From: Gemmatimonadota bacterium
Lineage (GTDB): Bacteria; Gemmatimonadota; Gemmatimonadetes; Gemmatimonadales; Gemmatimonadaceae
DNA length: 51,873 nucleotides
Reading direction: 5' to 3'
Assembly (NCBI GenBank): GCA_003136975.1
Contig: PLEG01000388.1
Location: 507-52,379, forward strand
Below are positions 7,374-47,132 of the stretch, one piece after another. Below the pieces are notes generated by a model, which saw only the letters and a program-made list of their open reading frames with translations, made no database searches and was not told the origin of the DNA. The position numbers were made by a program, and so were the translations under genes. Position 1 is the first letter of the stretch, and each line of letters begins with the position of its first letter.

Positions 7374-7400
7374 CCGGGAGAACACTACAACCACTCCCGT

Positions 7401-11200: not shown

Positions 11201-11665
11201 ATGCCTTTCAACTCTTCCGTCACGCAGTCTATCACCGCCGCGCTTACTCCTACCGGCAATACCCGCATCTTCGTGTACGGCACTCTCCGCGATGGACAGC
11301 GCAATCATCAACAGCTTTCAGAGGCTCGCTTTATCGGTACTGGCGAGACCGTGTCACACTTTACACTCCGTGTCGACAATCTCCTCCCGTATCTCGATGC
11401 AAGCAATCCTCTCTACCCCGTTCGCGGGGAAGTCTATGAGGTTGATTCGTCTGGACTGCGGGCGATCGACCATCTTGAAGGCCATCCTCGCTGGTATCGA
11501 CGTCGCGTCATCTCGATTCGGCTGGACAAGCGTCCCGGTGCTGCAGTGAAAGATGTCGTTGAGGCATTTGCTTACTTCCATTCGGATGCCCTGGGTCAGA
11601 TTCACCCAACTGGCGACTATACAGTTCCGATCACCACATCACTACCGAAAGAGGTAGCAGTATGA
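11201..11665 (+). CDS. gamma-glutamylcyclotransferase (GGCT/AIG2-like) family protein
   Basis: From ATG 11201: RIFVYGTLRDGQRNH .. VRGEVYEV .. LRAIDHLEGHP..YRR is the AIG2/GGACT signature. Its stop overlaps the next ATG. Confidence 0.7.
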   Translation: MPFNSSVTQSITAALTPTGNTRIFVYGTLRDGQRNHQQLSEARFIGTGETVSHFTLRVDNLLPYLDASNPLYPVRGEVYEVDSSGLRAIDHLEGHPRWYRRRVISIRLDKRPGAAVKDVVEAFAYFHSDALGQIHPTGDYTVPITTSLPKEVAV

Positions 11666-12048
11666 CGGACCCAGTGCGCAAGCGAACACTCAAGTGGCGC
11701 GACGGCCACGATAGAACTCCACTCGATGCAACATCTGAGGCGGAGCTCGTCGCTGTGATGCGCAAGCGATCACACTACGCCAACGTTGCGGACGACGCGG
11801 GATACATGCACGCGGTTGCGCGGCGCTTCCGTGAACTGGACGGAGTTACCGTTCGTTCCGACAGTCCTGCCAACTTTGTCGAGGATCTCGTCGCGGTCGG
11901 ACACATCGAAGCGGTATGGGTTGATGAAACCGGTGGCGAGACGCGCATTACGCCCGACGGATACAGACTCTCGCGCCTTCGCGCCAGCGGCATCCCTGTT
12001 CTGGATTCAGAGGATATGGATGCCGGGACACATGGTGGTGCCGTATGA
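11662..12048 (+). CDS. hypothetical protein (middle gene of the GGCT-amidoligase operon)
   Basis: 128 aa. ATGA overlaps at both ends (11662-11665, 12045-12048). AGAGG RBS. Confidence 0.5.
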   Translation: MTDPVRKRTLKWRDGHDRTPLDATSEAELVAVMRKRSHYANVADDAGYMHAVARRFRELDGVTVRSDSPANFVEDLVAVGHIEAVWVDETGGETRITPDGYRLSRLRASGIPVLDSEDMDAGTHGGAV

Positions 12049-13731: not shown

Positions 13732-14382
13732 ATGCCAACGATTTTCTCTCTCGCTGATTTCCAGAGCGACATCGACGTAGCACTTATTGAGAGTTGCGGC
13801 GATGTCACGCCCGCAATACAGGCAATGCTCGACGTCCATGAGAAGTTGGAGTCGGACAAGATCGATGCGTATGGGATCGTGTACCGCGACCACATGGACA
13901 GGGCAGCATCGTGCAGGAAATTGGCCGAGGAGTTAGAGGCTCGTGCTAAACAGCATGAGGCAACAGCCGATGGTCGCCGCCGACTGATGCAGTGGTACAT
14001 GGAGCGTCGCGGTATGCGCGAACTCTCCGGCTCCTTTGCGCGATTCTCGATTGCAAAGAACGGCGGTAACCAAAAAATCGAGTTGAAAGTCCCGGAGGCC
14101 GATGTCCCCGACTCGTTTCGGAAGCCACTTCCAGCGCAGCCGACGCGGGGTGATGTGGATACCAACGCGATCCGCGCGGCTATCGCCGCTGGAAGCGAGG
14201 AAGCCGCTGCAATTGCGATACTTCTTCCGCGTACTGAACGCGTAGATATTTCTTTCGGCCCACGGAAGCGCAATGCTGAAAAGCCGGAGGTCGCAGTCAA
14301 CCTTTCGGTGCTCGACGGTCAGGTTGGCCCCACTGTTGAGCCAGTAGCGGAACCATCCGTTGCTGAACCGATCGCAGCGTAG
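13732..14382 (+). CDS. Siphovirus Gp157-like protein
   Basis: 216 aa. Its layout fits the recalled Sipho_Gp157 family: an N-terminal helix, a central coiled segment ending in RRRLMQWYMERRGM, then FARFSIAKNGG..IELKVPEADVPDSF. Confidence 0.5.
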   Translation: MPTIFSLADFQSDIDVALIESCGDVTPAIQAMLDVHEKLESDKIDAYGIVYRDHMDRAASCRKLAEELEARAKQHEATADGRRRLMQWYMERRGMRELSGSFARFSIAKNGGNQKIELKVPEADVPDSFRKPLPAQPTRGDVDTNAIRAAIAAGSEEAAAIAILLPRTERVDISFGPRKRNAEKPEVAVNLSVLDGQVGPTVEPVAEPSVAEPIAA

Positions 14383-21628: not shown

Positions 21629-24155
21629 ATGACCACCACCATGCCCCAGATCAATACCAGCCATTTCAGCAATGTCGATATCGGTCTTCCTGCTGCCACG
21701 CTGTCTTCAAATGCACTCACCGTGCTCAAGAAGCGTTATCTCATGAAAGACGCTGAGGGTAACCCGACCGAGCGGCCCGAGGACATGTTCAGCCGCGTTG
21801 CAACAACCCTGGCTGACGTCGGTATTCGGTATGGCGAGTCGAGGAAGGACGTGCGGGATCTTGCACGCCGATTCTACGATCTGATGACCAGCGGGCGGTT
21901 CGAACCCAATTCCCCGACACTCATGAATGCAGGGCGGCCGCTAGGCCAGCTCTCGGCCTGCTTCGTTCTCCCGGTTGAGGACTCACTGTCCAACGGGCAC
22001 GACGGCATCTACGACTCGCTTCGTGCCTGCGCGCTGATTCACCAGAGCGGCGGAGGAACGGGGATGAGCTTCTCCAGACTCCGCCCGAAAGGCGCGACGG
22101 TCAGGAGCACTACTGGCGTGGCGAGCGGTCCTGTCAGCTTCATGGAGCTCTACGATGCTTCAACCAATGCGGTAAAGCAGGGTGGGGACGCGTCGCGGTG
22201 CCAACATGGGCGTCCTCCGGATCGATCATCCAGACGTGATGGAGTTCATCACGTGCAAGGAGGATCTGTCCAAGATCACGAATTTCAACATCTCACTCGC
22301 GATCACCGATGAGTTCATGCTCGCCGTGCGCGAGGGCACAGACTACGCGCTTTACGATCCCAAGTCGAAGGCCGAGGTCGGCCGCCTGGATGCGCGGACC
22401 GTATGGGAGAAGATGATCGATGGCGCATGGCGCACTGGTGAGCCTGGCTGCTTGTTCATCGACGAAGCGAATCGCTACAACCCAGTTCCACATCTCGGCG
22501 ATTACGAGGCGAGCAACCCGTGTGGCGAGCAGTTTTTGCTGCCGTACGACGTCTGTAATCTCGGATCGATCAACATCGGTGCGTATGTAATCGAGGGTGA
22601 ACTTGGCGTTCCAACATTGGATTGGGATGCTCTCCGTGAGGATATCCACGTCGCCGTCCACTTCCTCGATAACGTCATCGACGCAAACAAGTTCCCGCTC
22701 CCAGAGATCGAGACACTGGCGAAGCGGATCCGTCGCATCGGCCTTGGCCTGATGGGGTTCGCCGATGCACTGATCAAGCTCGGAATTCCCTACAACAGCA
22801 CTGAGGGAGTAGGGTTCGGTCGAGAGTTGCAGGCATTCATAGACGAGGAGGCCAAGATTGCGAGCGAAATCCTGGCTGAGACTCGTGGCACGTTCCCGGA
22901 GTGGGCGCGTTCTATATGGGGTCCGGACGAGACGTGCGCGCGTGACACAGACGGCGATCGCATCCGTCCGATGCGTAGGCTTCGCAACTGTAACGTGACG
23001 ACCGTAGCACCGACTGGGACGATCTCCATAATCGCAGGATGCTCATCGGGCATCGAGCCGCTGTTCGCTGTTGCGTTCATGCGCAATCAGGCCGACACAA
23101 AGATGGCCGACGTCAACGAAGATTTCGTCCGCGTTGCGAAGGAGGAAGGCTGGTACACTCCCGAGCTGATGGCTAGGATTGCCCGGGCAGGACATATTCA
23201 TTTCGCCGAAGTTCCGGAGAACTGGCAGCGTGTATTCGTCACTGCTCATGACATCACGCCTGAATGGCACGTGCGCATGCAGGCGGCGTTTCAGGAACGC
23301 TGTGATAGCTCGATTAGCAAGACTACAAATTTTCCCCGGTCAACTACACGCGACGACGTTCGCGCCATTTACGAACTCGCACACGAGCTAAAGTGCAAGG
23401 GCGTAACTGTCTACCGGGATGGTTCGCGAGAGAACCAAGTCCTCTCAACGGGCGCAACAACGCACGCTGAGGATAGCGGGACCGTTGATCCCAACACGGC
23501 AGAGTTGAAGGCAGCGTTGGCCGAGTCCAAGATTGAGGTCGAACGCCTTACGGGCAAACTGCTCGCTGCTGAGTCGGAGCACGCGGTCATCCGAAGCAAG
23601 CGTGAACGCCCAGGCTTGCTGCGTGGTACAACGATTCGGAAGGAGACGCCTCTTGGAACGATGTTCGTTAACATCACCGAGGACGATAAGGGCAACCCAT
23701 TCGAAGTCTTCATCAATCTCGGGAAGGCGGGTGGCGCAGCAATGGCTGATGCCGAAGCAATGGGACGTATGATTTCGCTCGCGTTGCGGTCAGGTATACC
23801 TCTGCGTGAGGTGCACCAGCAGCTCCGCGGTATCAGCTCTGACCGTGCGGTAGGATTCGGCCCGCACAAAGTGCTCTCTGTTCCCGACGCGATTGGAATC
23901 GCGATTGAGGAATGGCTTAAGTCGAGAGACGGCGTCCAGCAGGAACTCCTTACAGCAGATACTCCGAGCGGTGACGCTGCCGTAGTGGCCGCCCTCATAT
24001 CAGAGAAGGCCCCGGCCCTTTTCGATCATTTCGCCGAGCGGACTCGTAGTGACTATGGACGCCCGTGTCCAGATTGCTTGCTACCAAACTCTGTCATCGA
24101 GAGTTCTGGGTGTGAGCATTGCACCGCACCGGGTTGCGGCTACTCGGCGTGTTAA
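21629..24155 (+). pseudogene. nrdJ: class II (adenosylcobalamin-dependent) ribonucleotide reductase NrdJ, interrupted by a 1-nt frameshift
   Basis: Two ORFs (21629-22312 and 22182-24155) together give a colinear NrdJ. They join as ..NAVKQGG | [21 protein letters not shown].. across the G4 run at 22184-22187. Other hallmark segments are NSPTLMNAG, SACFVL, NPCGEQ, TVAPTGT and the C-terminal Cys zinc ribbon. This may be a sequencing indel. Confidence 0.85.
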
Positions 24156-27295: not shown

Positions 27296-28038
27296 TGTGT
27301 GTCAATACTCAGGTAGAGTCACGGTACAGGGAGTGGGTCGATCCATCAAAGGCTTGTTGAATCTTCCAGTCCAAATTTCGGCTGATGAGAGCTTCACAGA
27401 AACTGAGTTAACTCATTTATTTCGACCCTCCCACAAGCTGAGATGCTGGCGAAGGGAAGTTGGGGTACAGGGGCTGGGACAGGTTGAGAGCGAAATTGCA
27501 GGATGTACCTAGGTAGCCCCACGGGTAACCCCATGGTTCCACCGCCGATGGTATCAGTTAAAGGGGCTGGTTGGTCATATGTGCTTATTTAGCATGGACT
27601 TACAGCCTTTTCGATAGAATTGGAGTTCTCGCTAGTGATGGCCACACCCACTGTACTCTGACTATACCTTGATCAATTCATGCCAATTGAAGGCTTCGGG
27701 ACTGGATTGAACCGAGCTACCAGCCTGTACCCTGACCCTACCAAATTTGACGGAGATGATTCCCTATCCATCGTTCAAAGCTACTTTGCTATGCTCATTT
27801 TGCCCTTGAGATAGCAAAATCAACGAGACAATTACGTAGTTAGTAGCAATGTTATCCACGTAGAGGCGTATCCATGTTGGTATGTATGCTTTTTCCCGTA
27901 TCTAAAAACACTCCACATCAACACATCAGTAATCCACACTTCGAAGTACCTTTGAGACCGAATGAGTATCGTCCTACGAACAGCCTTTGGTGCGGGATTG
28001 TGCAATACGCGTACGATACACCAGTTTTGTAGAGTCGC
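27296..28038. other. candidate replication origin / divergent control region
   Basis: 743-bp non-coding stretch, visibly lower in G+C. DnaA-box-like 9-mers: TTATCCACG 27852-27860 and TAATCCACA 27930-27938. The octamer GGTACAGG occurs three times (27323-27330 +, 27464-27471 +, 27724-27731 -). AGGGGCTGG occurs twice (27469-27477, 27562-27570). Inverted repeat TTTGCTAT/ATAGCAAA (27785-27792 / 27811-27818). AT-rich tract around 27887-27911. Confidence 0.5.
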
Positions 28039-29847
28039 ATGACTCTCTCCCGTCGCTCACTCGCCCACTACGAATTCTCGCCGCCTCTATCACGTGCGGA
28101 CGAGTTGTTGCTGCATCACTACGATGTTGATCATCTACCCGGGCATTATCCGATCGTGCAGCTCGTGCTTCCGATCGCATTGCTTAATCCTCGGGCGGGG
28201 TCTCGGCGGGATGCGACAGGGAGACTTAACCGTGCTGTTTGTGAGCGATACCACGTATTCCCCCTCGCGGATGGCTCTCACGCACTCGCGTGTATCAAAG
28301 GGGATCCACAACTTGGGCTGCCGAGGGGCCAGGACCCTGAAGTTGCATTTGCTGTCACCGCGTTAGTTCTCGCGCGCCGGCGTAACGGCGGAACTGGTGC
28401 AGATTTGTCCATCCGCGACATTCTCGCTGTACTTGGCGCCGCCGATGACACAGGAGGCAAGCGATACACTCGAGTGCGTGCCGCTCTTGATCGATACGCG
28501 AAAACCACGATCGAACTGATCCAGGTTCCTTACGGTGTTGATCATGACGATCTGCTTGCAACAGTCCAGTCTGGAGAAGACGCCGTAACCGCTGTTGTTC
28601 GACTTGCACGAGCGGTTGGGCGTGACGTAGCTCCCAACTCGCCTCGAATCCCTATGCCTCGGGAGCGACCAAGAACAGTAACACGGCGAGACCATAGGCG
28701 ACCGACATCGCAGCCGGGCATCATGCGAGAAGTCACGGGCGTTTTCAAGCATGGCACGTACACCCCGATTGATGCTCATGACGGGACGGGAGTCTATCTC
28801 CGTAACGTCAACCTCGATGACTCATGGGTTGAGCAAGTCGATACGGGGCGCATCGGCTGGCTCGATTTGGCACTGTACCTGGATCTCCCAACTCCGCTAT
28901 CACAAGCGTTGTACAGAGTCGCAGTGGCCGAGGCGTTCACGGATCAGCAGGGGCGTGTTGAATGGTCCCTCGATTATATCCGATCAGCTGTCGGCGCCGA
29001 ACTGCACATGAAGCCGAAGCAGTTCTTGTCAGCCGTTCGTGTAGCGATGGAAGAACTCCGAACTCGCGCTGTCATTCAGGATTTTGGTGACGTCATCATA
29101 GGTCGAGGCAAGTACAGGGTTTGGTACAAACCTGGCTCTCCGCTTGAGGTGTCACGGCTACTCAGTGGCGTTACACCACTCGATCCGCAGGATCACCGCG
29201 CGAAGATGTTATTGCTGAATCACTTTGGCATTTATGGTGATGAAGCTCGCGCGCTCATTGTGCAGAGTCCGACACATGTTCATCGCGCTCTTCTGTTCGT
29301 CATTTACGAGGAGCAGACGCGAGGAACGCGTGAAGAGATGGTCAAGCCAATAGGCCACGCTGGGAAGTGGATTACCAAGGCTGTTACCGAAGCATGGGAT
29401 TTCAGTTCGTACCGGGGTTTCATGAATTGGGTTGGACGACGTGAAGCAGCGCTCGATGCAAAGGCCACCGGTGCAGTCGCACCTCCACCGCAAACCCTAT
29501 TCTTGCCGCGTGCCACTGAGATCTCAGTCGTGCCAGTTACTGCTCCCAAGATTGGAGATGGACCGGAAGCGTCGCGGGCAAGGCGGATCTTCACAGAAGT
29601 TCTTGAGCGCGCTACGCTGCTGTCGCAACCTGTGAAACTCACCGTCAGCTCAATGTTCGCTGCCTGGGGGATAGAAGGTGACAGCATCGTGGTTGTTGGA
29701 GAGCCGGGGGAATCAGACTTCTATCGTGGCCGGCTCGCAGAGGCGACCACCGCCACGGAACTGGGCGCGTTGACAGCCGAGCTCACCGACGGCCAATGCA
29801 CACGCATCTCGGCCGTTCGGTTCGATCCCGCGATACACGGCTTGTAA
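28039..29847 (+). CDS. plasmid replication initiator, RPA (replication initiator protein A)-like
   Basis: 602 aa. GLPRGQDPEVAFAVTALV .. DLSIRDILAVLG .. GGKRYTRVRAALDRYAKTTIEL fits the recalled PF10134 pattern. It sits next to the origin-like region. Confidence 0.55.
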   Translation: MTLSRRSLAHYEFSPPLSRADELLLHHYDVDHLPGHYPIVQLVLPIALLNPRAGSRRDATGRLNRAVCERYHVFPLADGSHALACIKGDPQLGLPRGQDPEVAFAVTALVLARRRNGGTGADLSIRDILAVLGAADDTGGKRYTRVRAALDRYAKTTIELIQVPYGVDHDDLLATVQSGEDAVTAVVRLARAVGRDVAPNSPRIPMPRERPRTVTRRDHRRPTSQPGIMREVTGVFKHGTYTPIDAHDGTGVYLRNVNLDDSWVEQVDTGRIGWLDLALYLDLPTPLSQALYRVAVAEAFTDQQGRVEWSLDYIRSAVGAELHMKPKQFLSAVRVAMEELRTRAVIQDFGDVIIGRGKYRVWYKPGSPLEVSRLLSGVTPLDPQDHRAKMLLLNHFGIYGDEARALIVQSPTHVHRALLFVIYEEQTRGTREEMVKPIGHAGKWITKAVTEAWDFSSYRGFMNWVGRREAALDAKATGAVAPPPQTLFLPRATEISVVPVTAPKIGDGPEASRARRIFTEVLERATLLSQPVKLTVSSMFAAWGIEGDSIVVVGEPGESDFYRGRLAEATTATELGALTAELTDGQCTRISAVRFDPAIHGL

Positions 29848-30049
29848 GCGGCGCCAAAGCCGATACTTGTAGGTTACAGGCCGCAACGTATTGGATAGAG
29901 AAGTACCACAAATCGTAGGATCGACAACTCGTTTTCACTCGCGGCAATCCCAGCAGGTGTAAGCCAGCCTGGGGCAGGGCCGTCTCTTGTATAGGTACCT
30001 GATTTCCACTGCACGCTATCGGTGTGCACCAGTCTGAGAGTTGTTTCCA

Positions 30050-31843
30050 ATGGCGAGATCACCATCGCGTCGAACGTCAAAGTTTTCCTTATCTCCTGAG
30101 GAACGCGAGCAGCGTCTCAACGAGGCGTCAAATCGTATGGAGGAAGCAGTTAAGTCTTTGACGACGAGTGATCAATTCCGCGCGGCGCTACGTGTGTCGG
30201 CTTCGTTCCCAGAGTATTCGTTCGGCAACACGTTGATGATCTGGACTCAGAACCCGGAAGCAAGCATGGTGTGCGGGTTCGAAGCTTGGAAGAAACTTGG
30301 ACGGCACGTGAAGAAGGGTGGAAAAGCAATCCGCATCTTTGTTCCGATGACATTCCGAAATAAGCTTGTAGCCGAGAGCTCTGCTTCGGGATCGGACGAA
30401 ACGCCAGGTGAGGTGAGTAGTGAGTCGAGGAGAGTAGCATTCCGTCTCGGCAACGTGTTTGATATTTCGTCGACGGAAGGGGAACCCATCCTTGAACTCC
30501 CGCGGCCCAAGATTCTCGAGGGAGACAGTCCTCTCATCCGGGCGGCGATAGCGGGCCTCTGCGATTTCAACGCCACTCGCGGAGTACCGGTGTCGTTCAC
30601 CGACATCGCCGGCATGTCAAAGGATGTCAATGGGTTCTGGCACCCGATAAAGCGTCGGATTGAAGTGCGTGAATCCTTGTCTCCCCTGCAGCGCCTAAAA
30701 ACGCTCGCACATGAAACGGCTCACGCCCGACTCCATCTCGTGCCGCTGCACTCTGACCAAGAGCGAAGAACAGCGGAGCTCGAAGCTGAAGCATCCTCGT
30801 ACCTTGTGCTCGACTCCCTTGGTATTGATGGTGCTGAGGAATACTCGTTTCCATACCTAGCTGGTTACTCAACAACTCCAGAAAGCATATTGGGAGTTGG
30901 AGAACGGGCCCGTAAAGCAGCCGCGGTCATCATCGACTCGGCTTATTGCGCGATCAATCAGCAGCTCGGGACAGAATTCGTACGCGGAGTACCGCTCGAC
31001 GCGTTGGAGGCACGAGCAGATGCGGCGCGTGAGTCGAAAGCTGCGAGGGTGGCAGGGAAGAACTCACGCGACCATTATCGGCGTGTGTCTGATGCTGGAG
31101 AGACCGCGTCAGTGCAAGCCAAGGCAACCGGCCTCTTTATCGCGATAGAGGGAGTTGATGGGATAGGCAAATCAACCGTCCTACCAATCCTTGCAGAGAA
31201 GATTGAGAAAGTGCTGGGTCGAAAAGTTGTCTGCGTCCGGGAACCTGGTGGTACGCCGATCGGAGATGAAATCCGTACGGCACTCAAAGCCGGCGTAGGC
31301 TCGAGCGACCCCCATCACCAGCTTGCGATGTTCTGTACCGCACGTAAGGCGCTCATCGAGCAGGTCGTAAGGCCCGAGATTCAGGCCGGTAGCGTCGTGA
31401 TCGCTGATCGGCATAGTCTGAGTACGTACATCTACCAGGGCGGTTCTGGGGTGTCAGAGCGGCAGATTGCCGATGCTAATGCGGCTGCTGTGGGTGGAAC
31501 ACGTCCGGACGCTACCGTGGTCCTGTGGGCGACGCGCGAGGATCTCATCGCCCGCCGGCTCGCGAGGAACGCCGCGGCCGATGCCTTTGACGAGGTTACT
31601 GAGGATGGAACGATCAGAGCGCTCGAGCGGCAGGCTCGGTATGTAGCTCTAGCGAATCGAACACCTGGCGCCATGACAGTCGCAGTTCAGGCTACCCCGG
31701 AGGCGACGGCATCCGCAGTGGTAGAGCGATTGGCTCACGTCCTCGCTATAGCCCGTGGTGAGGCAGCTCCACAAGTTGAGACCAAGCCTCAATCGGTTCA
31801 GGAGGAAGACTCGGAGGAGGTCATCGCAGCCGCTGTTGCATAA
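30050..31843 (+). CDS. ArdC-like antirestriction protein (ssDNA-binding N-domain + HExxH metalloprotease) fused to thymidylate kinase
   Basis: N-domain EYSFGNTLMIWTQNP..GFEAWKKLGRHVKKGGKAIRIFVP. HETAH at nt 30710-30724. C-terminal Tmk: FIAIEGVDGIGKST (P-loop from nt 31151), REPGGTPIGDEIR, ADRHSLSTYIYQG, PDATVVL. The ORF opens at TTG 30041. Confidence 0.7.
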   Translation: MARSPSRRTSKFSLSPEEREQRLNEASNRMEEAVKSLTTSDQFRAALRVSASFPEYSFGNTLMIWTQNPEASMVCGFEAWKKLGRHVKKGGKAIRIFVPMTFRNKLVAESSASGSDETPGEVSSESRRVAFRLGNVFDISSTEGEPILELPRPKILEGDSPLIRAAIAGLCDFNATRGVPVSFTDIAGMSKDVNGFWHPIKRRIEVRESLSPLQRLKTLAHETAHARLHLVPLHSDQERRTAELEAEASSYLVLDSLGIDGAEEYSFPYLAGYSTTPESILGVGERARKAAAVIIDSAYCAINQQLGTEFVRGVPLDALEARADAARESKAARVAGKNSRDHYRRVSDAGETASVQAKATGLFIAIEGVDGIGKSTVLPILAEKIEKVLGRKVVCVREPGGTPIGDEIRTALKAGVGSSDPHHQLAMFCTARKALIEQVVRPEIQAGSVVIADRHSLSTYIYQGGSGVSERQIADANAAAVGGTRPDATVVLWATREDLIARRLARNAAADAFDEVTEDGTIRALERQARYVALANRTPGAMTVAVQATPEATASAVVERLAHVLAIARGEAAPQVETKPQSVQEEDSEEVIAAAVA

Positions 31844-31881
31844 CTCATCCGGATATGTCTCCGTCGCCACTGTGGGTCGTC

Positions 31882-31893
31882 GCGCAGGTGCAT
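31882..31893 (+). repeat. 12-mer start-proximal motif copy (GCGCAGGTGCAT)
   Basis: 45 nt upstream of ATG 31939. Confidence 0.7.
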
Positions 31894-31938
31894 ACGGCAG
31901 CAACGACCCATTTCGGGTCGATCTGTCGGAGAATCATC

Positions 31939-33213
31939 ATGTCCCGCTTAACTAGTCCTGCCCCCTCGATCTTTCAGTCGTCCAACTTCGCTTCCGCCGC
32001 CGGCGACGTACATCCCATGTACGGGCTCATTCGACGTCACGGGCGACTCCCGGCAAAGGATTTTGTTGCCTTGGTGGGCACCTTCCGTACTGGCGTGAGC
32101 GATGACGTGATATCGGAGCAATTGCTCGCGACTTACGTTCCGCTCCTCTCGGCGATGGTCCAGAGGAAAAGTCCGAAGGGTGACGCTGGTCTTCAGTTCC
32201 GGGAAGGAGCCGTTCCAGCCGCGATTGCGGCCTTCTTCGAGGCGATCGGGGATTCGAGTATCCCGCTCGCGCCCCGTGCGCTTCTCAAGGAAATCAATTC
32301 ACGTGTAACGAGGGCACTCGAGCAGGAATTACTCTCGGCTGAGCACGCCCTCGTTGTCTCCGCTCAATCCGCCTGGCGAGCTGGGAACGTCATTCGAACC
32401 GCTGGCGCTGTGTCCAACGCCGACGTTGACTGGCTCACACGGGATGAGGTCTACGCGATACTCGGCGATTCAATCCGCGTTGAGAGTATTCATCTGGTCC
32501 AGAATTCCAAGTTCGCCCTCGCTCTTGGATCAAGCTCTGGGAGCAGACGAGCAGAATTGGGCGAAGAGATGGTTACTGCTGAATCGATTCCAAACTTACG
32601 GGAGGAGACAACAGGTGCCGCGGCAGTAGCTGCCGAACGACTCGCGCGTGCCTTGGCGACCTTGCCGGCGGCGGATGCCCGCATGCTTGTGGACGCCCAT
32701 GGTCTCTTCGGTCGGAAACCAATTCTCGCAGCCGACGTTGCCGCGGAGCTCGATGTTCACCCGTCGACTTACAGGCGTATACTAAACCGTGCTGAGGCAC
32801 TCCTCCGGAGTGAGCTGATAGCTCAAGATTCGCCTGACCTGGGAGGGGTTGATGGTACCGGTGGTGCTCCGGTTCGAGGCGCTTGGTGCTCGGCGAACAG
32901 CTCACTTATGCGCAAAGGCTACCGAACTGAGCTTGAGCCAGGGATGGTCCGCTACGCCCGACACGTTGCTGGTGCAGTGCGGTGTTTCGCTGAGCACGAG
33001 GGGTGGAATCCGAAAGAGACTGAAGCAGCGGTTCGGAGGCTCGTTTCCTTCCGTACAGGCCGGACTGACGCATCCGATCACCCGTTGACCCTACAGATTG
33101 TGGACAGCCTGACGACATTTGCGCAGTCCTCGGCCGGTGGCACTGGTCGTTCGGCAGCCGAACCACCATCAGTGGCCACAGTAGAATCATCATTCGCAGA
33201 GTCCGCTGCGTAA
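31939..33213 (+). CDS. divergent sigma-70-family-like protein
   Basis: GGAGAA RBS precedes ATG 31939. Region-2-like LLATYVPLLSAMVQRK..FREGAVPAAIAAF and region-4-like HTH ILAADVAAELDVHPSTYRRILNRAEALLRSEL, with an extra ~140-aa C-terminal tail. Confidence 0.45.
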   Translation: MSRLTSPAPSIFQSSNFASAAGDVHPMYGLIRRHGRLPAKDFVALVGTFRTGVSDDVISEQLLATYVPLLSAMVQRKSPKGDAGLQFREGAVPAAIAAFFEAIGDSSIPLAPRALLKEINSRVTRALEQELLSAEHALVVSAQSAWRAGNVIRTAGAVSNADVDWLTRDEVYAILGDSIRVESIHLVQNSKFALALGSSSGSRRAELGEEMVTAESIPNLREETTGAAAVAAERLARALATLPAADARMLVDAHGLFGRKPILAADVAAELDVHPSTYRRILNRAEALLRSELIAQDSPDLGGVDGTGGAPVRGAWCSANSSLMRKGYRTELEPGMVRYARHVAGAVRCFAEHEGWNPKETEAAVRRLVSFRTGRTDASDHPLTLQIVDSLTTFAQSSAGGTGRSAAEPPSVATVESSFAESAA

Positions 33214-33356
33214 ATGTGATACTGTGGCTACATTTGTCGCAAAATCGCACATTTGGCGCGATTCTGCACAAGTTGGCTGGATTATGTACTACCATTTTCT
33301 GAAAATTCGATTATGAACTGGCGTTTGAGGGTAAGGCAACTGCTGGATGCGCATCG

Positions 33357-33920
33357 TTGACCGCTCCGATGCCAGGAGAGGCAGAGCATCCTCGCCCGCG
33401 ACGCGTGGGTCGGCACGAGCCGTTTACTTCGGCTCTCGAGAAAATTGGGACGAAAAGGAACCCGCTCTGGCAGGTGACGGCCGCCGGGCTGCTCCTGTGC
33501 AGATTCATGGACTCCTGGGCTCTGATGGGGCCGACCTTCATGCGCTGGCCGAGCGAGACTGCGAAGGAAAGACGTCAGGTCGTAGAGGAGGTCGGCGAAC
33601 AGTGGTCGGATCTCCGGGAATCTCTCCTGCTTGCGTTCGATACGCTCGCTCTCAAGGGTGTATCCCCCGAGGCCGAAATCTCCACTGCTACGACACGCGC
33701 GATCTGGTTGAAAGCTGTGTATGCCCTTGCAGACGCAGCGGATTCCTACCAGAAGCACGGGCTACCTGATCGTGCGAGTGACATGTATCAGCTTGTCCTC
33801 GATCGTCTTCCGCCTTCCGAAGGAAAGCGCGCTATCAGAAGATCCCTGGCAGTGGAGGAACTTGCAGAGCGCTGCAGGTCAGCCATTAGCCAACTCGAAG
33901 AGCAAAACGGCGATGTCTAG
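33357..33920 (+). CDS. hypothetical protein
   Basis: 187-aa ORF (TTG start; ATG 33369 possible), preceded by the AT-rich region 33214-33356 with short inverted repeats. Confidence 0.4.
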   Translation: MTAPMPGEAEHPRPRRVGRHEPFTSALEKIGTKRNPLWQVTAAGLLLCRFMDSWALMGPTFMRWPSETAKERRQVVEEVGEQWSDLRESLLLAFDTLALKGVSPEAEISTATTRAIWLKAVYALADAADSYQKHGLPDRASDMYQLVLDRLPPSEGKRAIRRSLAVEELAERCRSAISQLEEQNGDV

Positions 33921-33983
33921 AAAACGCAGCGCTTGTCATGAATTCGCTCTAGGCCGGATCGTGTATTAGCCGTACCTTGGCTG

Positions 33984-34292
33984 ATGGCAAGCAATCACCG
34001 CGGGACCAGTTTGCATTGGAAGCTTGTACAGGGTGCAAACGATCAGCTTGAGCTCGTTCTGATTCCAGATCCGCACATATTGGAAGATCCAGACTCAGTG
34101 AAAGCCATCGAAGTGATACGTGCAATGACACATGAGCGTGCACATGGTTGGCGCGAAATACCTAATGGGCCAACACCGACGCTCCCCTGGCATCCGGATC
34201 TCACGCCAATCGAGCATTCGTGGATGTGGATGAAACTCCTCAAGGCTTACGCGATCCAGCCGAATCTGACGGCGCCCAAAGCGATATCGTAG
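33984..34292 (+). CDS. hypothetical protein
   Basis: 102-aa ORF. No motif recognised. Confidence 0.4.
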   Translation: MASNHRGTSLHWKLVQGANDQLELVLIPDPHILEDPDSVKAIEVIRAMTHERAHGWREIPNGPTPTLPWHPDLTPIEHSWMWMKLLKAYAIQPNLTAPKAIS

Positions 34293-34748: not shown

Positions 34749-35528
34749 ATGGTAAAGCATAAATGGCGGAGCTGCAAAGCGGCACTTTCGAATCCTCGGA
34801 CGAGCAAATTGCGACTCGCAGGCTTGCGCGTGCTGGAACTAGCGCGGGATATGGAGGGTGGCGTGTTCCCGGAGAGTTTGAAGGACGCGGAGGGACGGTA
34901 CGTCGAACTCGATTGCGTAAACTGCGATGCGAAGTTGCAGAATGCGAAGCTATACTGCGGTGACTACTGTCAGCAATTCTCCGGTACGGTTCGTTATGCC
35001 CGGAAAGCCATTGATGAAGGGCGAATCGTCAAGGCCGAAGTCCAAGAGGGCATCGGGCAGCGCCTTTTGATGCTGAGTGGGGGAGGGTACCCGACCGATA
35101 GGCGCGCTCTTACAAAGCAGGAACGCGAGGCGATTCTAATACGCGACCATCGCAAATGCCAGGAGTGTGGTCGTAAGGCAACGGAAGTAGATCACATCCG
35201 AGGAGATTCAAGCGATACTCGCAACCTTCGCGCTTTGTGCAAGAATTGTAATCAAGGCGCTGCTGTTGAGAATGCCAGGATCATCACGCGAGAGGAAGAT
35301 CCAATTGAGTGGGAGCGTATTTTCGAGATGTACGAAGCCATGGCCCAGCGGATCGCCGCACCGCTACCTCTTCGGTTCTGCGACGACCATCTCAATTGGC
35401 GGAAAGCGCAGTATTCCATCCGCGCAGCAAGAAAGGCAATGTTGCGCGAGATCGAGGAGGAGGAGGAGGAAACCGACTTCGTAGACGTTGACGATTACCT
35501 ATACAACGCGATGCAGAAAAACGATTAG
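34749..35528 (+). CDS. HNH endonuclease
   Basis: 259 aa. GGAGGG RBS. Core IRDHRKCQECGRKATEVDHIRGDSSDTRNLRALCKNCNQ, with N-terminal CVNC..CGDYC cysteines. Confidence 0.75.
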   Translation: MVKHKWRSCKAALSNPRTSKLRLAGLRVLELARDMEGGVFPESLKDAEGRYVELDCVNCDAKLQNAKLYCGDYCQQFSGTVRYARKAIDEGRIVKAEVQEGIGQRLLMLSGGGYPTDRRALTKQEREAILIRDHRKCQECGRKATEVDHIRGDSSDTRNLRALCKNCNQGAAVENARIITREEDPIEWERIFEMYEAMAQRIAAPLPLRFCDDHLNWRKAQYSIRAARKAMLREIEEEEEETDFVDVDDYLYNAMQKND

Positions 35529-35633: not shown

Positions 35634-37016
35634 ATGCTCTCACATCAGAATCCGATCACTAGGATTGTCAGTCCCGCAGGCGACGGGCCTACAAGGTCAT
35701 TCTCCGAACGTGCGGAGGATCTGCTCGACCGGTTGCTAATTGCGGATTACGATACTGGCACGAGTACGGCATGGGCTGGTGCAGCGCCCTGGCACCTGTG
35801 TTCGGCGTTCAAGCCGACATTCAATCAGCTCGCGTTCGATCTTTTTCCCTCGCTCGATCCCAGCGACTTGAGCTGCGATCCCGATCACGCCGTCTTCATA
35901 AAGAGTGGGTTCAGCGTTCGCTTGATCGAGGGGAAAGGGAAAGCCACTGTGCTGGACGAATTTGTATCGCGTCATCATCACTCCCTCCGGGGTGGCGGGA
36001 TGAGTGGCCGAGCTTACGGGCTGTATGATCCAACCGCCGCTCTCGTTGGTCTCATTATCTTCGCGAGACCGACGAATGCAAAGACTGCTGCAGGGATGCA
36101 GGTCGTAGAAATAGGCGACGACCTACTCTCGCCAACCGAGCTGGCGCATGTTACGCACGGAGAAGGCGAGACATTGGATTGCACACGACTTTGTGTTGCT
36201 GATGTGACGCCATCTGGGTTCATTTTAGGTACTGGAGCAGAGTCGTTCCTGTTTGCAGCGGGGCTGCGTGATCTCGCAAGTCGAAACCGGTCTCTCTGGA
36301 GAGCGACCCGCATGGTAGAGAAGGGGATTCCGCTTACGCCGGACACGCGCCGGATCCTTGCCAGCGTTTCAAGTTGTAAATGTGTTCGCTCTTTTGCGAC
36401 TGTCGGGACGCGAGGGGTCTCCTATGCCGCGTCTGGGCTTTTCTATTGCGGCAGAGGGCGGTCCGAACAGGAATCAGTTGGCAGACGATCGGGGGAAGTT
36501 TGCGGACGCAGGTCGCTCTCGAAGCTCGAAAGCCTGCACTGTCACGGACATGACCATCAAGTGCTCCGCGCTGTTTGGGAGGGCGGCGAAGGCTGCGTGA
36601 CCGCTTTCGACTCGAGAGGAAACGTGATCACATCAATCGACCTATCGCCGATTCGCGCGATGGTAGGTGATGATCTCACACCTCTCGTCCGTCAGCGCGC
36701 ACTCAAGCGTGCGTACCGCGAACTCCGAGCTGATGCAGAGCGCGGAATTGCGCGAGTGGATATTACGTGGAGTCTCAGTGCGGATAGGGCGGGCTATGTA
36801 TTGCGGCATGCGAGCCCGAAGCATCGGTACGTCGGCTACTTGGGCGCCCCGTACTACGTCGTAGAGATGGCGCGGCGGTCAAAGTATCTCCGGGACAGTA
36901 TCCTGGCTGCCGAGCGTGCTTGGTTCGCGCCTGAGCGACGCTGGCCGCGTGGGATTGGCTTCGGTTGGAAGCGCCCCCCACAGAGACTTGGGATTCCTCC
37001 GATGCCGAGATCCTAG
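35634..37016 (+). CDS. hypothetical protein; N-terminal half resembles the HRHH-motif GNAT-fold family of phages/MGEs (Mom-like?)
   Basis: 460 aa. SRHHHSLRGGGMSGRAYGLYDPTAALVGLIIFARPTN .. LDCTRLCV resembles the recalled pattern HRHH-P-x-G..F..G....LVGV..GRP...EVTR-C. This is a low-certainty recall match. Confidence 0.4.
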   Translation: MLSHQNPITRIVSPAGDGPTRSFSERAEDLLDRLLIADYDTGTSTAWAGAAPWHLCSAFKPTFNQLAFDLFPSLDPSDLSCDPDHAVFIKSGFSVRLIEGKGKATVLDEFVSRHHHSLRGGGMSGRAYGLYDPTAALVGLIIFARPTNAKTAAGMQVVEIGDDLLSPTELAHVTHGEGETLDCTRLCVADVTPSGFILGTGAESFLFAAGLRDLASRNRSLWRATRMVEKGIPLTPDTRRILASVSSCKCVRSFATVGTRGVSYAASGLFYCGRGRSEQESVGRRSGEVCGRRSLSKLESLHCHGHDHQVLRAVWEGGEGCVTAFDSRGNVITSIDLSPIRAMVGDDLTPLVRQRALKRAYRELRADAERGIARVDITWSLSADRAGYVLRHASPKHRYVGYLGAPYYVVEMARRSKYLRDSILAAERAWFAPERRWPRGIGFGWKRPPQRLGIPPMPRS

Positions 37017-38259: not shown

Positions 38260-39339
38260 ATGACCACAAGAAACGAGTTACCAGCAGCGCCGAGGGAATT
38301 GTCGTTCGGCGTCAACGAGACCCGCTTGCTGGGCGAAGTCGGCCTTTTCTTCAGCTCCGCAACCGCCGCATTCGCCGAGTGTGTGCAGAACGCTTACCGC
38401 GCCGGCGCCACAACGCTACGTGTGACCGCTGATCCATCAGCCCGGAAAGTCGTATTCCGAGATAACGGTTGTGGCTTGAGCGACCCAAGCAAGCTGCTGC
38501 AAATGGCGGAAAGTGGCTGGGACACAGCAGACGTGAAGCACGCCGCGGGTTTGGGCTCGCTCGCGCTGTTCGCGATCGCTACAGATGTTGAGATTATCTC
38601 GATGCCTGATGACGGTAGTGCCCCGTGGCGCATACACTTCACGGACGCTGCTCTTCGTCACGAGGCTCCGGTTGAGTGCTGGGATGCTATTTCACCATCC
38701 CTCTGGGCTGAGCACGGTGACGAGGCTCATGGTGTCGAGATTCGCGCAACACTCCGTGAGTCCGCGACATTCCCGACAATGACAGCCGAGGACAGTGGAA
38801 AGTGGCGGCATCGATTCCCTCTGGCGATCACGATCGAGGTCGCTGATTCCACCATTCCAGGCGGGGTTCTCCGTAGCGTTCACACCGTTGGGCCTCGTGA
38901 GGGCTATTCGATTGAAACATCGGCTGGGGCGCTACACGTTACCTCGCCGAACAAGCAGAGTGGCCACTTTTCTACTGCGATCTTCGTTGAATGGGAGCAT
39001 CGGCGTACCGGGACAGTCTCGATACCGGACGAGGTTCTTTCCGAAGAATTGTGCGTCGGTGTTCCTAACGCGGTTCGCGAGGAATTGATCAGGCGCCTTC
39101 GCCGTGACGTTGAGCTCGTCTGGGTTGTATCACCAAATGTGGCGGTCGAGGCAAAACTTCCCGATCGCGAAACGCTGGTGCGTGATGAAGGATTCAAGCG
39201 GGCGATGAGTGTCCTCGCAGCAACGTTGCTCGCGGAGTTTGATGTTGAAAACCTCCGCAAAACGTTCGTGGAGTTCACTAAGGGCGAAGCGATCGTCCAG
39301 CTTGACGATATTGAGCAGCTTGCGCGTGGTGTCAAATAG
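38260..39339 (+). CDS. GHKL/Bergerat-fold ATPase (HATPase_c_3 / MORC-sacsin-like); ORF ends at a TAG followed by 57 more in-frame sense codons
   Basis: GAGGA RBS. N-box FAECVQNAYRAGAT, G1 VFRDNGCGLSD, G2 AAGLGSLALFAIA. Frame 1 stays open from TAG 39337-39339 to TGA 39511-39513. Confidence 0.6.
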   Translation: MTTRNELPAAPRELSFGVNETRLLGEVGLFFSSATAAFAECVQNAYRAGATTLRVTADPSARKVVFRDNGCGLSDPSKLLQMAESGWDTADVKHAAGLGSLALFAIATDVEIISMPDDGSAPWRIHFTDAALRHEAPVECWDAISPSLWAEHGDEAHGVEIRATLRESATFPTMTAEDSGKWRHRFPLAITIEVADSTIPGGVLRSVHTVGPREGYSIETSAGALHVTSPNKQSGHFSTAIFVEWEHRRTGTVSIPDEVLSEELCVGVPNAVREELIRRLRRDVELVWVVSPNVAVEAKLPDRETLVRDEGFKRAMSVLAATLLAEFDVENLRKTFVEFTKGEAIVQLDDIEQLARGVK

Positions 39340-39531
39340 TTCCGACCCCGCTTCAAGGGAATCCCGCTTACCGCTTTCGACCCGATTCCGTTCCTTGCGA
39401 TAGCGGGGTATGGCATTCCCGAGGGTGGAAACGATCTGTCGGATGTGGATTGCAGCCTCATTCTAGACGGTGATGGTTCAGACTTCGAAGTGTCGTACAA
39501 TACGACGCGGTGACTCGTCAAGCCTCTGTAC

Positions 39532-40275
39532 GTGACACCATTCGCTCAACTTGCCGTTGATGCCGGGATTCCGGCGATCGGCCCAGCAAAAGCGAAGAAT
39601 CACGATGGACTAATTCCACTCAGCATCGTCGCCCGTGGCGAGTCGCTCTTTGTGGAGGAGATGCAGGCGATCTTCGCTCGTGGTCTTCAGTTCGTAACTC
39701 CCGATGGTGTAAAGGTCGCATCGGTGCCCGTAGCTGCGTTTGAGTCAGCCTGGGAAGAGCTCGATGATACCGACGTGGAGTTGCCCGTTTGGTTGAAGAA
39801 TCGAGAGCCAATTCAGGTAATCTTTGCCATGCCCGGAGATGACCCGACACCACTCCCGGATGCTGTTATGGCGTACGTCCTGGAATCCCAAGCGTTCAAC
39901 AACTACGCGACGATCATGGCCGGAGAGCGCGATGGTGGAGAATTCGCGCTCGACATTTGGGACTACACCGAGTCGAACAGTTCGGATTCCAACGACTCGT
40001 GGAGTGAGACGCGTCTCGCCGCTGATGCACGTCGGCTGGTAGCCAATGCGGTAGGTGGAAAGCACGTACTGCAGGCCGAACGGGTTGCCGTCCTGGCAGA
40101 ACTGAGCGACATGATGGATGTGACCTTCAACTACGGCGACCGCGTTGACGCGCTGGTTCAGCGCGGGAAGACTGCGGGGATTGAGCCGAAGCTGCTCGCG
40201 CGGATACTCAGATCCCGCAACACGCTCCGAGATGCACTCAAGGCAATCCGCCTTCAGCAATCCGATGCGCGGTAG
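39532..40275 (+). CDS. hypothetical protein, partner of the GHKL ATPase
   Basis: 247 aa, GTG start 18 nt after TGA 39511-39513. No motif recognised. Confidence 0.45.
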   Translation: MTPFAQLAVDAGIPAIGPAKAKNHDGLIPLSIVARGESLFVEEMQAIFARGLQFVTPDGVKVASVPVAAFESAWEELDDTDVELPVWLKNREPIQVIFAMPGDDPTPLPDAVMAYVLESQAFNNYATIMAGERDGGEFALDIWDYTESNSSDSNDSWSETRLAADARRLVANAVGGKHVLQAERVAVLAELSDMMDVTFNYGDRVDALVQRGKTAGIEPKLLARILRSRNTLRDALKAIRLQQSDAR

Positions 40276-45506: not shown

Positions 45507-45858
45507 GAAATCAGGATTACGGCCCGCGCTTACTCTGCAGGTGAGAGTCGCATATGAGTCTGATGGAACGTCATCCAAGGCTGAATGCGATAACCAGGCG
45601 CTGATGGCGGGCAGCCATGCAGCCGCTCTAGCCGAATGGGCACGGATATTCGCGAGAGTCTTGATCCGCGCTGATCGTGCTGGCCAGCTAGCGGCTCATC
45701 CGAAGCGGAATGATTTCGCTGCTGCGAGCCCTATGAGCTCCATACCAGACGCGAATGATGTTGGCTGTAGTCGGCGCATCCGGGTGCGAACTTCACATCG
45801 TCAGCCGTATTGCGCATTGGAAGGCGCGAAAGCCACTAGTCGAGGAGAATTCCAATGA
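45490..45858 (+). CDS. hypothetical protein
   Basis: GGAGGAGG RBS precedes ATG 45490. 122 aa. No resolvase motifs. Confidence 0.3.
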   Translation: MKASDKKSGLRPALTLQVRVAYESDGTSSKAECDNQALMAGSHAAALAEWARIFARVLIRADRAGQLAAHPKRNDFAAASPMSSIPDANDVGCSRRIRVRTSHRQPYCALEGAKATSRGEFQ

Positions 45859-47132
45859 GACAGCGAACCAAACGTCGTGAGGGGAAGACAACTAATCCAC
45901 AGAGCAATGCAGCGCGCGGATCGTACGCTGCAGCCGCACGTGGTCACTGGCAGGGGGTGGCTCCGGTCGGCTATCGGCGACTTGCTATGAAGGACGGACA
46001 CGCATCCCAAATGCTTGAGAATGGAATTGCCAAACCGAAGGGGTACTATTGTATCCTCACGCCAGCGAATCAGAGTGAGCAGGAACTTGTGCGTTCTCTA
46101 TTCGGCCATTATCTCGAGGTCGGCGCGACGATCGAGTCGACCCTTCGCTATGCGAACGATCTCCGAGCAGGACCTGTGTCCGCTAGGGACGACGTCATGC
46201 TCAGAGATGATCTTGTATGGAGTGAGCCGGCGATCCGTAACATCCTTATGAATCCCGTCTACGTGGGAACGGTCTGTTATGGCCGGAAGCCTCGGCAGGG
46301 TAGAGGCGGAGGTCGCGGGTTTGCCGTTAACAGCACACCTACCATAACTCTTGGGGCGCACACGGCGCTCGTGTCCAAGGCACTCTTCGAGCGTGTGCAA
46401 GGCAAGCTTCAGCAGAATCGGAGCTACCAATGCGGTGTCCGGACGGCCTACGCCTTCAGTGGCGTCGTGACGTGTGCGAGTTGTGGTTCATCCATGGTTG
46501 GTGGTGGTGGGATGTCGTTGCTGTCTCAAGGAAGGCGCAGCGATGCTGCATATCGCTGCGCTGGCGGGGCCCGGAGGCCCCGCGGCGGCCACCGAGGCCG
46601 GACGGCTAATTGTCGCCCGCCGCGTACTACGGTAAGGCGGCAGCATCTTGAGGGGCCAATCATCGATGCGGTGGCGCGCACACTTGGCCGGCCGGACGTT
46701 GTTGCGGCTGTAAGGACTGCACTTGAATGTGAGTTGGCGTCATCGACCGCGGATGAGGTCGGCGCAAGTTTAAAGCGTATGGCTCGGCTCCTCGCCAGCA
46801 TCGAGCGCCAGCAGGCCAACATCATCCGCGCGATTGCGAACGACATTGTTAGCGGGGAGGATGCCAAGACCGAACTCACGCATCTTGGCGAGCGGCACGG
46901 CGCTGCACAGCGTCGGTTAGCAGAGATCTCTCTACTGCATGCGGGTGATGAAATCCATCATTGTGGTGCTGATCAGTTATCGAGGTGGACGCAAGACATC
47001 TTGGCGCTCACAAATCGTTTAGACGGCGAGCTAGTTCGCGCAGTGATAGCGCCTTGGATTGCATCAGCCGTATTCGATAAGCGTGATCGATCTATTTCGA
47101 TACTGGTCCGTTCATCGCCGGTTATGGGGTAA
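45855..47132 (+). CDS. large serine recombinase C-terminal portion (recombinase domain + zinc ribbon + coiled coil) lacking the catalytic resolvase domain
   Basis: It begins about at GVAPVGYRR. Also present: LVRSLFGHYLE, WSEPAIRNILMNPVYVGT, and the zinc ribbon FSGVVTCASCGSSMVGG..YRCAG. All three upstream frames contain stops, and no S-R catalytic motif was seen. Confidence 0.6.
   Translation: MRQRTKRREGKTTNPQSNAARGSYAAAARGHWQGVAPVGYRRLAMKDGHASQMLENGIAKPKGYYCILTPANQSEQELVRSLFGHYLEVGATIESTLRYANDLRAGPVSARDDVMLRDDLVWSEPAIRNILMNPVYVGTVCYGRKPRQGRGGGRGFAVNSTPTITLGAHTALVSKALFERVQGKLQQNRSYQCGVRTAYAFSGVVTCASCGSSMVGGGGMSLLSQGRRSDAAYRCAGGARRPRGGHRGRTANCRPPRTTVRRQHLEGPIIDAVARTLGRPDVVAAVRTALECELASSTADEVGASLKRMARLLASIERQQANIIRAIANDIVSGEDAKTELTHLGERHGAAQRRLAEISLLHAGDEIHHCGADQLSRWTQDILALTNRLDGELVRAVIAPWIASAVFDKRDRSISILVRSSPVMG

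Follow-up and report, generated by a model that had tools for sequence, protein, structure and literature searches.

The subject of this study is a gene on a stretch of 51,873 nucleotides from a Gemmatimonadota bacterium (contig PLEG01000388.1, positions 507 to 52,379), referred to below as the window. The gene encodes a fusion of an ArdC-type protein, predicted to bind single-stranded DNA (ssDNA), with a thymidylate kinase (Tmk), and this fusion is genuine and conserved. It is probably a bifunctional, polyvalent-type establishment protein of a large element resembling a plasmid or an integrative and conjugative element (ICE), combining ArdC protection of ssDNA with a deoxythymidine monophosphate (dTMP) kinase. 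Two functional units stand in one polypeptide of mobile-element-like DNA, with ArdC-N at the N-terminus and a metallopeptidase (MPTase) present, which is how polyvalent proteins are defined.

The fusion gene is one unbroken open reading frame (ORF) on the + strand, which runs from 30041 (TTG) or 30050 (ATG) to 31843. The ATG at 30050 is taken as the start, giving 597 amino acids, because all five members of the family open with MAR(S/L)PS; the JGI gene call for the same gene starts at Met30 (568 aa). In the NCBI (MGI8548643.1) and JGI records, family members are annotated as 'dTMP kinase' only, and the ArdC half is left unannotated. The gene is laid out as follows.

30050..31843, + strand: complete ArdC-Tmk fusion gene, 597 codons plus stop.
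30050..30115, + strand: N-terminal peptide, residues 1-22 (MARSPSRRTSKFSLSPEEREQR), near-invariant in the alignment of all five homologues.
30086..30499, + strand: predicted ArdC-N ssDNA-binding domain, residues ~13-150 (Pfam PF08401 and model).
30500..30979, + strand: predicted gluzincin metalloprotease domain, residues ~151-310, corresponding to the ArdC C-terminal domain (Peptidase_M78 and R388 ArdC alignment).
30995..31129, + strand: Ala/Arg-rich helix, residues 316-335, followed by a disordered linker, residues 336-358 (predicted local distance difference test, pLDDT, and alignment).
31130..31759, + strand: type-II dTMP kinase domain, residues 361-570 (TIGR00041, 4TMK and Foldseek).
31760..31840, + strand: disordered C-terminal tail with a conserved acidic patch, EED..EE (pLDDT ~35).

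The original prediction, made from the letters of the window, had placed an ArdC-like domain, an HExxH protease and a complete Tmk in one ORF of 597 codons. All profile and structure tests agree with this reading, and the motifs lie where it put them, including HETAH (H221-H225) at exactly 30710-30724. Both N-terminal domains exceed their Pfam cut-offs: ArdcN (PF08401) matches residues 40-137 with 44.3 bits (cut-off 22.6), and Peptidase_M78 matches residues 177-241 with 32.0 bits (cut-off 22), which provides the predicted ArdC and protease domains with profile support. Moreover, the PHROG 7245 family, 'anti-restriction protein', gives a single match which spans residues 45-296 (E=6e-17). Within this region, the ArdC-N block extends from Y56 to F97 (30215-30340), and the HETAH motif is followed by the putative metal ligand Glu243 (30776-30778) and by Tyr269 (30854-30856). 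The ArdC-N domain is modelled as a helical bundle with a nested beta-hairpin, the tip of which carries a disordered Ser/acidic loop (residues 105-127; 30362-30430) of varying length in the five-way alignment.

The relationship to the ArdC of plasmid R388 is distant. A single-sequence phmmer search of the N-terminal half against the PDB returned chance matches only, and ArdC was reached only with a profile of 14 sequences, in which this half is combined with 13 stand-alone relatives. The profile matches R388 ArdC (6SNA/6I89) with E ~6e-7 over residues 75-290 of 297, and both ArdC domains are thus spanned. In the resulting alignment H221, E222 and H225 fall on H201, E202 and H205 of ArdC; E243 coincides with E229, a metal ligand, and Y269 with Y255. 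These ArdC residues are the ones defined in the structure paper (PMC7213743). None of the five corresponding residues of the fusion varies, either among the 14 aligned sequences or among the five fusions. The comparison of structures leads to the same protein. The AlphaFold model of residues 1-330, compared with the PDB by Foldseek, retrieves 6I89 with E=1.2e-8, probability 1.00 and template-modelling (TM) scores of 0.44/0.51 over 266 columns, and ArdC chains alone fall below E=1e-3. Such a moderate TM score is compatible with a differing orientation of the modelled domains and with disordered loops.

Because one PHROG 7245 match and the profile and structure matches to R388 ArdC cover them together, ArdC-N and the HExxH protease are considered one complete ArdC, not two modules. 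The domains of the original prediction hold, and its count of three modules is to be corrected to two units, as ArdC-N plus protease is the standard ArdC body. Judged by these alignments, residues 1-335 form an entire ArdC-type protein with a predicted ssDNA-binding domain and a protease which has its catalytic residues. As in the ArdC of R388 / pSa (IncW) (6I89, 6SNA; PMC7213743), ArdC-N is joined to a C-terminal gluzincin protease body, the HExxH motif, the Glu of the glutamate helix and the conserved Tyr align, and both proteins are found on mobile elements. The differences are also clear. The identity is ~18-19% and is detectable by profile or structure only, a long disordered stretch is inserted in the fusion's ArdC-N hairpin (the loop at residues 105-127), and its anti-restriction role is predicted only. 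R388 ArdC, with 297 aa, ends after the protease, whereas the fusion continues into a linker and a 210-aa dTMP kinase.

The second unit is well defined. Pfam Thymidylate_kin (PF02223) matches residues 366-519 with 96.8 bits (cut-off 27), the NCBIfam equivalog for dTMP kinase, TIGR00041, scores 107.3 bits (cut-off 83.25), and E. coli Tmk (PDB 4TMK) aligns with residues 363-563 (E=2.7e-25). The motifs follow in order: the P-loop GVDGIGKST with Lys374 (31151-31177), REPGGT (31238-31255), DRH (31406-31414), YQGG (31433-31444) and the LID arginines Arg502/Arg506 (31553-31567). In the 4TMK alignment, Phe428 and Arg432 correspond to F74 and R78 of the E. coli enzyme, Arg454 of the DRH motif to R100, Tyr462 and Gln463 to Y108 and Q109, and Arg502 and Arg506 to R149 and R153. 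These residues are presumably those which contact thymine and dTMP or belong to the LID, as in the E. coli Tmk structure. All positions that are invariant in ten free Tmks are kept in the fusion kinase, and they are invariant among the five fusions too. The P-loop has Gly, not Arg, after Asp, as in type-II (LID-arginine) Tmks.

The model supports this assignment, with a pLDDT of ~90 over residues 361-560. When the full-length model was compared by Foldseek, the top 50 matches were all thymidylate kinases (target-normalised TM 0.73-0.89), and solved Tmk structures matched with 0.81-0.89; this query was swamped by Tmk entries, and the N-terminal half was therefore folded separately. The nearest free Tmks are 35-45% identical to the fusion kinase. 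The latter is 33-35% identical to E. coli Tmk (4TMK), which it matches in fold (TM 0.81), in every catalytic and dTMP-binding motif, in the LID arginines and in the Gly-type P-loop, and it differs in its position behind ArdC, in its acidic disordered tail and in being encoded by a mobile element. From these motifs, the kinase half is a canonical type-II dTMP kinase and apparently active (dTMP + ATP -> dTDP, the diphosphate), with no sign in its sequence of an inactive or re-specialised enzyme. PADLOC gave only a weak match, in which the Tmk half resembles the candidate family PDC-M51B (52 bits vs 107 for TIGR00041), and membership of a defence system on this basis was rejected.

Such a canonical set of residues bears on the idea, raised in the original prediction, that the kinase phosphorylates a modified nucleotide. 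According to this explanation, the Tmk-like domain would act on a modified nucleotide or a modified DNA base, as in the case of 5-hydroxymethyldeoxyuridine (5-hmdU) DNA kinases. The window does contain Mom-like, amidoligase/GGACT and methylase genes, and a DNA-binding fusion would suit a DNA-directed kinase. However, all dTMP-specific residues are canonical, the threshold of the dTMP-kinase equivalog is passed, and no dUMP hydroxymethylase, ThyA-like (thymidylate synthase) homologue or base-exchange gene was seen in the ~65 kb over which the gene content was read, namely the window and its flanks, including ~10 kb upstream. Unlike the phage 5-hmdU DNA kinases and modified-dNMP kinases, the fusion is therefore a canonical Tmk without a ThyA-like hydroxymethylase among the genes called there, and the explanation is highly improbable.

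The AlphaFold2 model of the full-length protein has a mean pLDDT of 76 and a predicted TM score (pTM) of 0.53. It consists of two confidently folded bodies, residues 13-335 and 361-570, joined by the disordered segment 336-358 (pLDDT <50). In the model the ArdC and Tmk modules fold independently, and the linker of about 25 residues is predicted to be flexible and, from the alignment, fast-evolving. Both ends of the protein depart from this two-body picture. Residues 1-12 are predicted to be disordered (pLDDT <50), yet the first 22 residues stay near-invariant down to 60% identity. At the other end, E589 and E590 of the tail are invariant in the five-way alignment. The acidic disordered tail recalls the acidic tails of SSB (single-stranded DNA-binding protein), gp32 and gp2.5. 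Both termini may be candidate short linear motifs for interaction or translocation.

The identical 597-aa protein was called on 12 contigs, the longest of 238,978 bp, in clusters with NCBI, Logan, ENA and JGI as sources. Four diverged homologues have the full fusion architecture, with the junction in frame in each: P0001 (98% identity; NCBI), P0002 (73%; JGI), P0003 (71%; a Gemmatimonadaceae metagenome-assembled genome in NCBI) and P0004 (60%; ENA, from a sample labelled forest). L001-L003, the three loci whose flanks are long enough to be compared, share synteny with the window and come from different samples. The family thus comprises five distinct sequences, all of metagenomic origin, and some of the metagenomes carry the label forest or wood. 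An artefact of assembly or sequencing, considered in the original prediction, would have joined two separate genes, and at least two disrupted genes in the window (a ribonucleotide reductase frameshift and in-frame stops in an ATPase gene, described below) could speak for it. Because the protein occurs on 12 contigs from several sources and in-frame homologues down to 60% identity lie in syntenic loci, this explanation is refuted for practical purposes.

The pattern of substitution is that of two constrained bodies and a free connection. Both halves have many invariant columns when the five proteins are aligned, and residues ~320-360 and the last ~30 residues vary. Between the window fusion and the L002 and L001 proteins, synonymous sites are saturated (proportion of synonymous differences, pS, 0.7-0.8), and the proportion of nonsynonymous differences (pN) is 0.13-0.27 in the three domains vs 0.42-0.55 in the linker and tail. 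In the same two comparisons Tmk is the best-conserved module, with 80% and 69% amino acid identity, and the linker retains 45% and 19% vs 66-80% in the domains. The length of the linker stays similar in the five-way alignment while its sequence drifts, and no conserved internal Met from which a separate Tmk could start is found there.

These data also bear on a neutral explanation, in which two adjacent and unrelated genes were merged by loss of a stop codon, and the halves keep their own jobs without adaptive meaning. The unconstrained sequence of the linker, the structural independence of the modules and the rarity of the family are in its favour. On the other side, no relative was found in which ardC and tmk are neighbouring but unfused genes (three contexts and scans of IMG/VR, GTDB and JGI), and at identities as low as 60% the five lineages still have the fusion, none having split it again. 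The neutral explanation is thus unlikely, and sequence alone cannot separate it from the establishment protein preferred here.

The architecture is extremely rare. A profile of the five fusions was run exhaustively by hmmsearch against 1.84 billion representatives of protein clusters at 50% identity, with the top 150 matches listed; a very divergent fusion totalling less than ~166 bits would fall outside them. Among these 150, one match is full-length, P0004, the representative of the fusion family, with 1099 bits. The following ones, at 204 bits or less, cover the ArdC half only and, in one case, the Tmk half only. P0111, the sole other protein among them with two matched stretches, has no Tmk domain and was rejected as a fusion. 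In the tblastn searches, 2,474 of 72,556 PLSDB plasmids and 274 of 50,697 phage records (INPHARED) were matched, and none of these matches covers 80% or more of the query. The ArdC-like halves are mostly plasmid-borne (1,149 of those plasmids are predicted to be conjugative), and the Tmk halves, among the phage matches listed, come mostly from jumbo phages. A blastn search of positions 28000-34000 against the phage and plasmid collections gave no match, IMG/VR viral contigs and GTDB representative genomes yielded no further family members, and a scan of JGI metagenomes returned only ordinary chromosomal tmk without ArdC.

That no ArdC-Tmk fusion is known to have been described, as the original prediction remarked, is supported by the library of papers searched, in which none names both 'ArdC' and 'thymidylate kinase', by the main text of the polyvalent-protein survey (PMC5512222), where 'thymidylate' and 'nucleotide kinase' occur 0 times, and by the profile scan, in which no fusion outside the family appears in the top 150. 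This survey describes ArdC-N plus MPTase as the main hub for enzyme fusions in conjugative elements, for example with the TraC1 primase, and proposes that the MPTase releases the partner domains after delivery (PMC5512222). Tmk is a newly found partner domain for these known ArdC-type polyvalent proteins. Similarly to RP4 TraC1 (ArdC-N, MPTase and Toprim primase; PMC5512222), an unrelated enzyme required soon after arrival in a new host stands after a zincin MPTase, and TraC1-like ArdC-primase fusions are present among the homologues found. The partner itself is different: it is a housekeeping nucleotide kinase, whereas the survey's main text describes protein kinases of the Ser/Thr type and kinases that resemble zeta toxins (PMC5512222). 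In comparison with polyvalent proteins, the fusion is small (597 aa) and has only two functional units. Mobile replicons with their own dTMP kinase are known among large ones: jumbo phages of Vibrio, Klebsiella and Pseudomonas, and the Rickettsia felis plasmid pRF (pRF13). In all of these tmk stands alone, and none is fused with ArdC.

The window forms one end, ~52 kb long, of contigs that measure 184-198 kb (Logan SRR11593519_8507; JGI 3300037104 Ga0395706_000045), and nearly all of its genes lie on the + strand. The neighbouring genes which could be characterized are the following.

354-1900 and ~3 kb upstream (L009 7046-11547): PRTRC cassette (PRTRC_E, Prok_Ub, Prok-E2_D, ThiF/E1-like).
4503-5333: DUF4031-containing gene.
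~6868-8120: Xre-like helix-turn-helix (HTH) gene and RES-domain gene, forming a toxin-antitoxin pair, with a DUF4326 gene upstream.
11201-13631: conserved trio of GGACT (gamma-glutamyl cyclotransferase-like), a small ORF and a 528-aa Amidoligase_2.
13732-14382: Sipho_Gp157-like gene, after the GGACT/amidoligase trio.
21629-24155: class II (B12-type, TSCPD-containing) ribonucleotide reductase (RNR) gene, split by a frameshift at ~22180-22186.
28039..29847, + strand: upstream neighbour of the fusion, 602 aa, weakly RepA-like (Pfam RPA, PF10134, 28.8 bits).
31855..33213, + strand: downstream neighbour of the fusion, 452 aa, weakly similar to sigma-70 region 4 or HTH (sub-threshold matches).
34749-35528 and 35634-37016: HNH endonuclease and an adjoining 460-aa Mom-like protein (weak, sub-threshold).
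38260-40275: HATPase_c_3 (GHKL-type ATPase) gene with two in-frame stops, TAG 39337 and TGA 39511.
45855-47132: large-serine-recombinase-like protein, with Recombinase and Zn-ribbon domains only.

Other recognised genes encode a DNA polymerase III beta clamp, an orphan N6/N4 methylase, SSB, NlpC/P60, a protein with a prepilin-type N_methyl domain, a ddrB-ParB protein and a member of the sigma-70 family. Scans for tRNAs and Rfam families found nothing in the window. Part of the surroundings of the fusion is conserved. The RepA-like gene lies upstream of it in L003, L004 and L005, the sigma/HTH-like gene is syntenic in L002 and L003, and the HNH and Mom-like genes, which may form a DNA-modification module, are conserved downstream in the same two loci. 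The PRTRC cassette straddles the start of the window and represents the kind of ubiquitin-like conjugation system that large plasmids and ICEs typically carry; such cassettes have been reported on large plasmids (PMC7466150).

At least two genes of the element are disrupted. In the RNR gene, a +1 frameshift results from an extra G in GGTGGGGAC, where the close relative L003 reads GGT-GGGAC and has an intact gene of 841 aa. The frameshift is probably real, because the split (227 + 612 aa) is also called in the Logan and JGI assemblies, and it could reflect a pseudogene or a slippage site. The HATPase_c_3 gene is intact in relatives, with 668 aa in L003 and 678 aa in L002. The recombinase-like protein aligns with positions 225-546 of 651 of PHROG 95 and has no match to the Resolvase catalytic domain; a 122-aa ORF overlaps the start of its gene, and the serine recombinase may be truncated or split. 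The 3' end of the window abuts an ISL3-family transposase, with which the contig break coincides (L018 14529-16244; L019 6462-13595). One assembly continues past this transposase into HAD hydrolase, B12-radical-SAM and nonribosomal peptide synthetase genes, which may belong either to the cargo of a plasmid or to the chromosome flanking an integrated element.

On the basis of its genes, the host element is regarded as a replicon of soil bacteria which resembles a plasmid or ICE and is large (about 184-239 kb). A huge phage or phage-plasmid would be the alternative, as ArdC homologues have been reported in huge phages (preprint 10.1101/2025.02.27.640493). It is not favoured, because the ~65 kb showed no virion genes and IMG/VR no relative, and because PRTRC, RepA-like and toxin-antitoxin genes are present. 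The mix of an anti-restriction gene, an orphan methylase, a toxin-antitoxin pair and SSB matches the anti-defence or establishment islands of plasmids (PMC11541004). The closest stand-alone relatives of the ArdC half adjoin ATPases of type IV secretion systems (T4SS), a coupling-protein-like gene, SLT/NlpC-P60 and SSB.

Within such an element the fusion would probably serve establishment. It would be made, or possibly transferred, as the element enters a cell or starts replicating. The ArdC half would coat the ssDNA of the element and guard it against restriction, as for R388 ArdC, which binds ssDNA and must be present in the recipient for Type I restriction to be overcome (PMC7213743). The Tmk half would be an element-owned step of dTTP synthesis, feeding the synthesis of the complementary strand and the replication of a very large replicon, which carries its own beta clamp, SSB and class II RNR (the latter as the frameshifted gene). 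Fusion would guarantee 1:1 co-expression of the two activities and probably place the kinase near the ssDNA being copied. More speculatively, the embedded protease may release the kinase by autoprocessing; neither a signal for delivery nor a cleavage site is recognisable in the sequence.

Several points weigh against the establishment role. Every activity of the fusion, together with the timing of its expression, the localised supply of dTDP on ssDNA and autoprocessing, is a prediction from sequence. The gluzincin protease of R388 ArdC is dispensable for anti-restriction and has no known substrate (PMC7213743). No relaxase, T4SS or origin of transfer was seen in the ~65 kb, and neither conjugative transfer nor a leading-region position is established. 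The region upstream of the gene (29848-30049) contains no sigma-70-like promoter, and its predicted ssDNA fold is of ordinary stability on both strands (z = 0.14 and 1.04), which gives no evidence for a Frpo-like ssDNA promoter. The RNR frameshift in the fusion's own element weakens the notion of a coherent, element-encoded dNTP supply, and the Sipho_Gp157, Mom-like and ddrB-ParB neighbours are more typical of phages. Finally, no tmk lies beside the stand-alone ArdC relatives in the three contexts available, and genomic association thus gives no independent evidence of a functional link between the two activities.

A more specific form of the idea is that ArdC-N tethers Tmk at the ssDNA of the element, that dTDP and dTTP are made where the complementary strand is synthesized, and that the fusion itself has been selected. 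In phage T4, the dNTP-synthetase complex associates with gp32-coated DNA, and such tethering would be its covalent analogue. The long retention of the fusion, with synonymous divergence (dS) saturated between members, points in this direction, as do the similar length of the drifting linker, the lack of a conserved internal start yielding free Tmk in the five-way alignment, and the element's own clamp, SSB and RNR. However, dTDP is freely diffusible and still needs the host nucleoside diphosphate kinase. The model, with its pTM of 0.53 and disordered linker, indicates no fixed packing or interface between the modules, and the confinement of the architecture to one tiny family among the 1.84 billion representatives (top 150 matches) speaks against a large general advantage. 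These three points, together with the lack of tmk beside ardC in the three contexts, count against any strong functional coupling, and specific tethering is rather unlikely.

Alternatively, Tmk could be an anti-defence effector, delivered or expressed together with ArdC, which counters nucleotide-pool immunity or a shut-off of host thymidylate. The neighbours resemble an anti-defence or establishment island (the orphan methylase, toxin-antitoxin pair, SSB, Mom-like protein and ArdC itself), nucleotide-depleting defences do exist, and the logic of polyvalent proteins would fit here too. Nevertheless, the depletion systems found in the literature target dCTP or dGTP, not dTMP or dTDP, thymidylate kinase is not mentioned among the top-ranked literature on such defences, and the PADLOC match is weak. 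An anti-defence effector is accordingly improbable, and the bifunctional establishment protein is retained as the preferred interpretation.

Modules of ArdC-N and metalloprotease are known hubs which mobile elements fuse to enzymes required within minutes of reaching a new host, such as primases, methylases and toxins, and the fusion described here extends them. It is doubtful that the ssDNA-tethered dTMP kinase is an adaptive establishment or anti-defence device which makes thymidine nucleotides locally for synthesis of the complementary strand. If it were, the protein would accompany the incoming single strand or assemble on it, and the establishment of a ~200-kb element would be partly independent of the recipient's thymidylate supply, or resistant to its manipulation. 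A housekeeping nucleotide kinase would then represent a new class of polyvalent effector, a plasmid-borne covalent counterpart of the coupling between the T4 dNTP synthetase and gp32. The general importance of the fusion is unproven, as the family is tiny, with its five distinct metagenome sequences. It provides a simple construct for asking whether dNTP synthesis couples physically with incoming ssDNA, and its naming as 'dTMP kinase' hides the anti-restriction half from annotation-based surveys of anti-defence genes. The conserved fusion of Tmk suggests that, in this lineage at least, very large plasmids can be limited in their establishment or replication by the supply of thymidine nucleotides.

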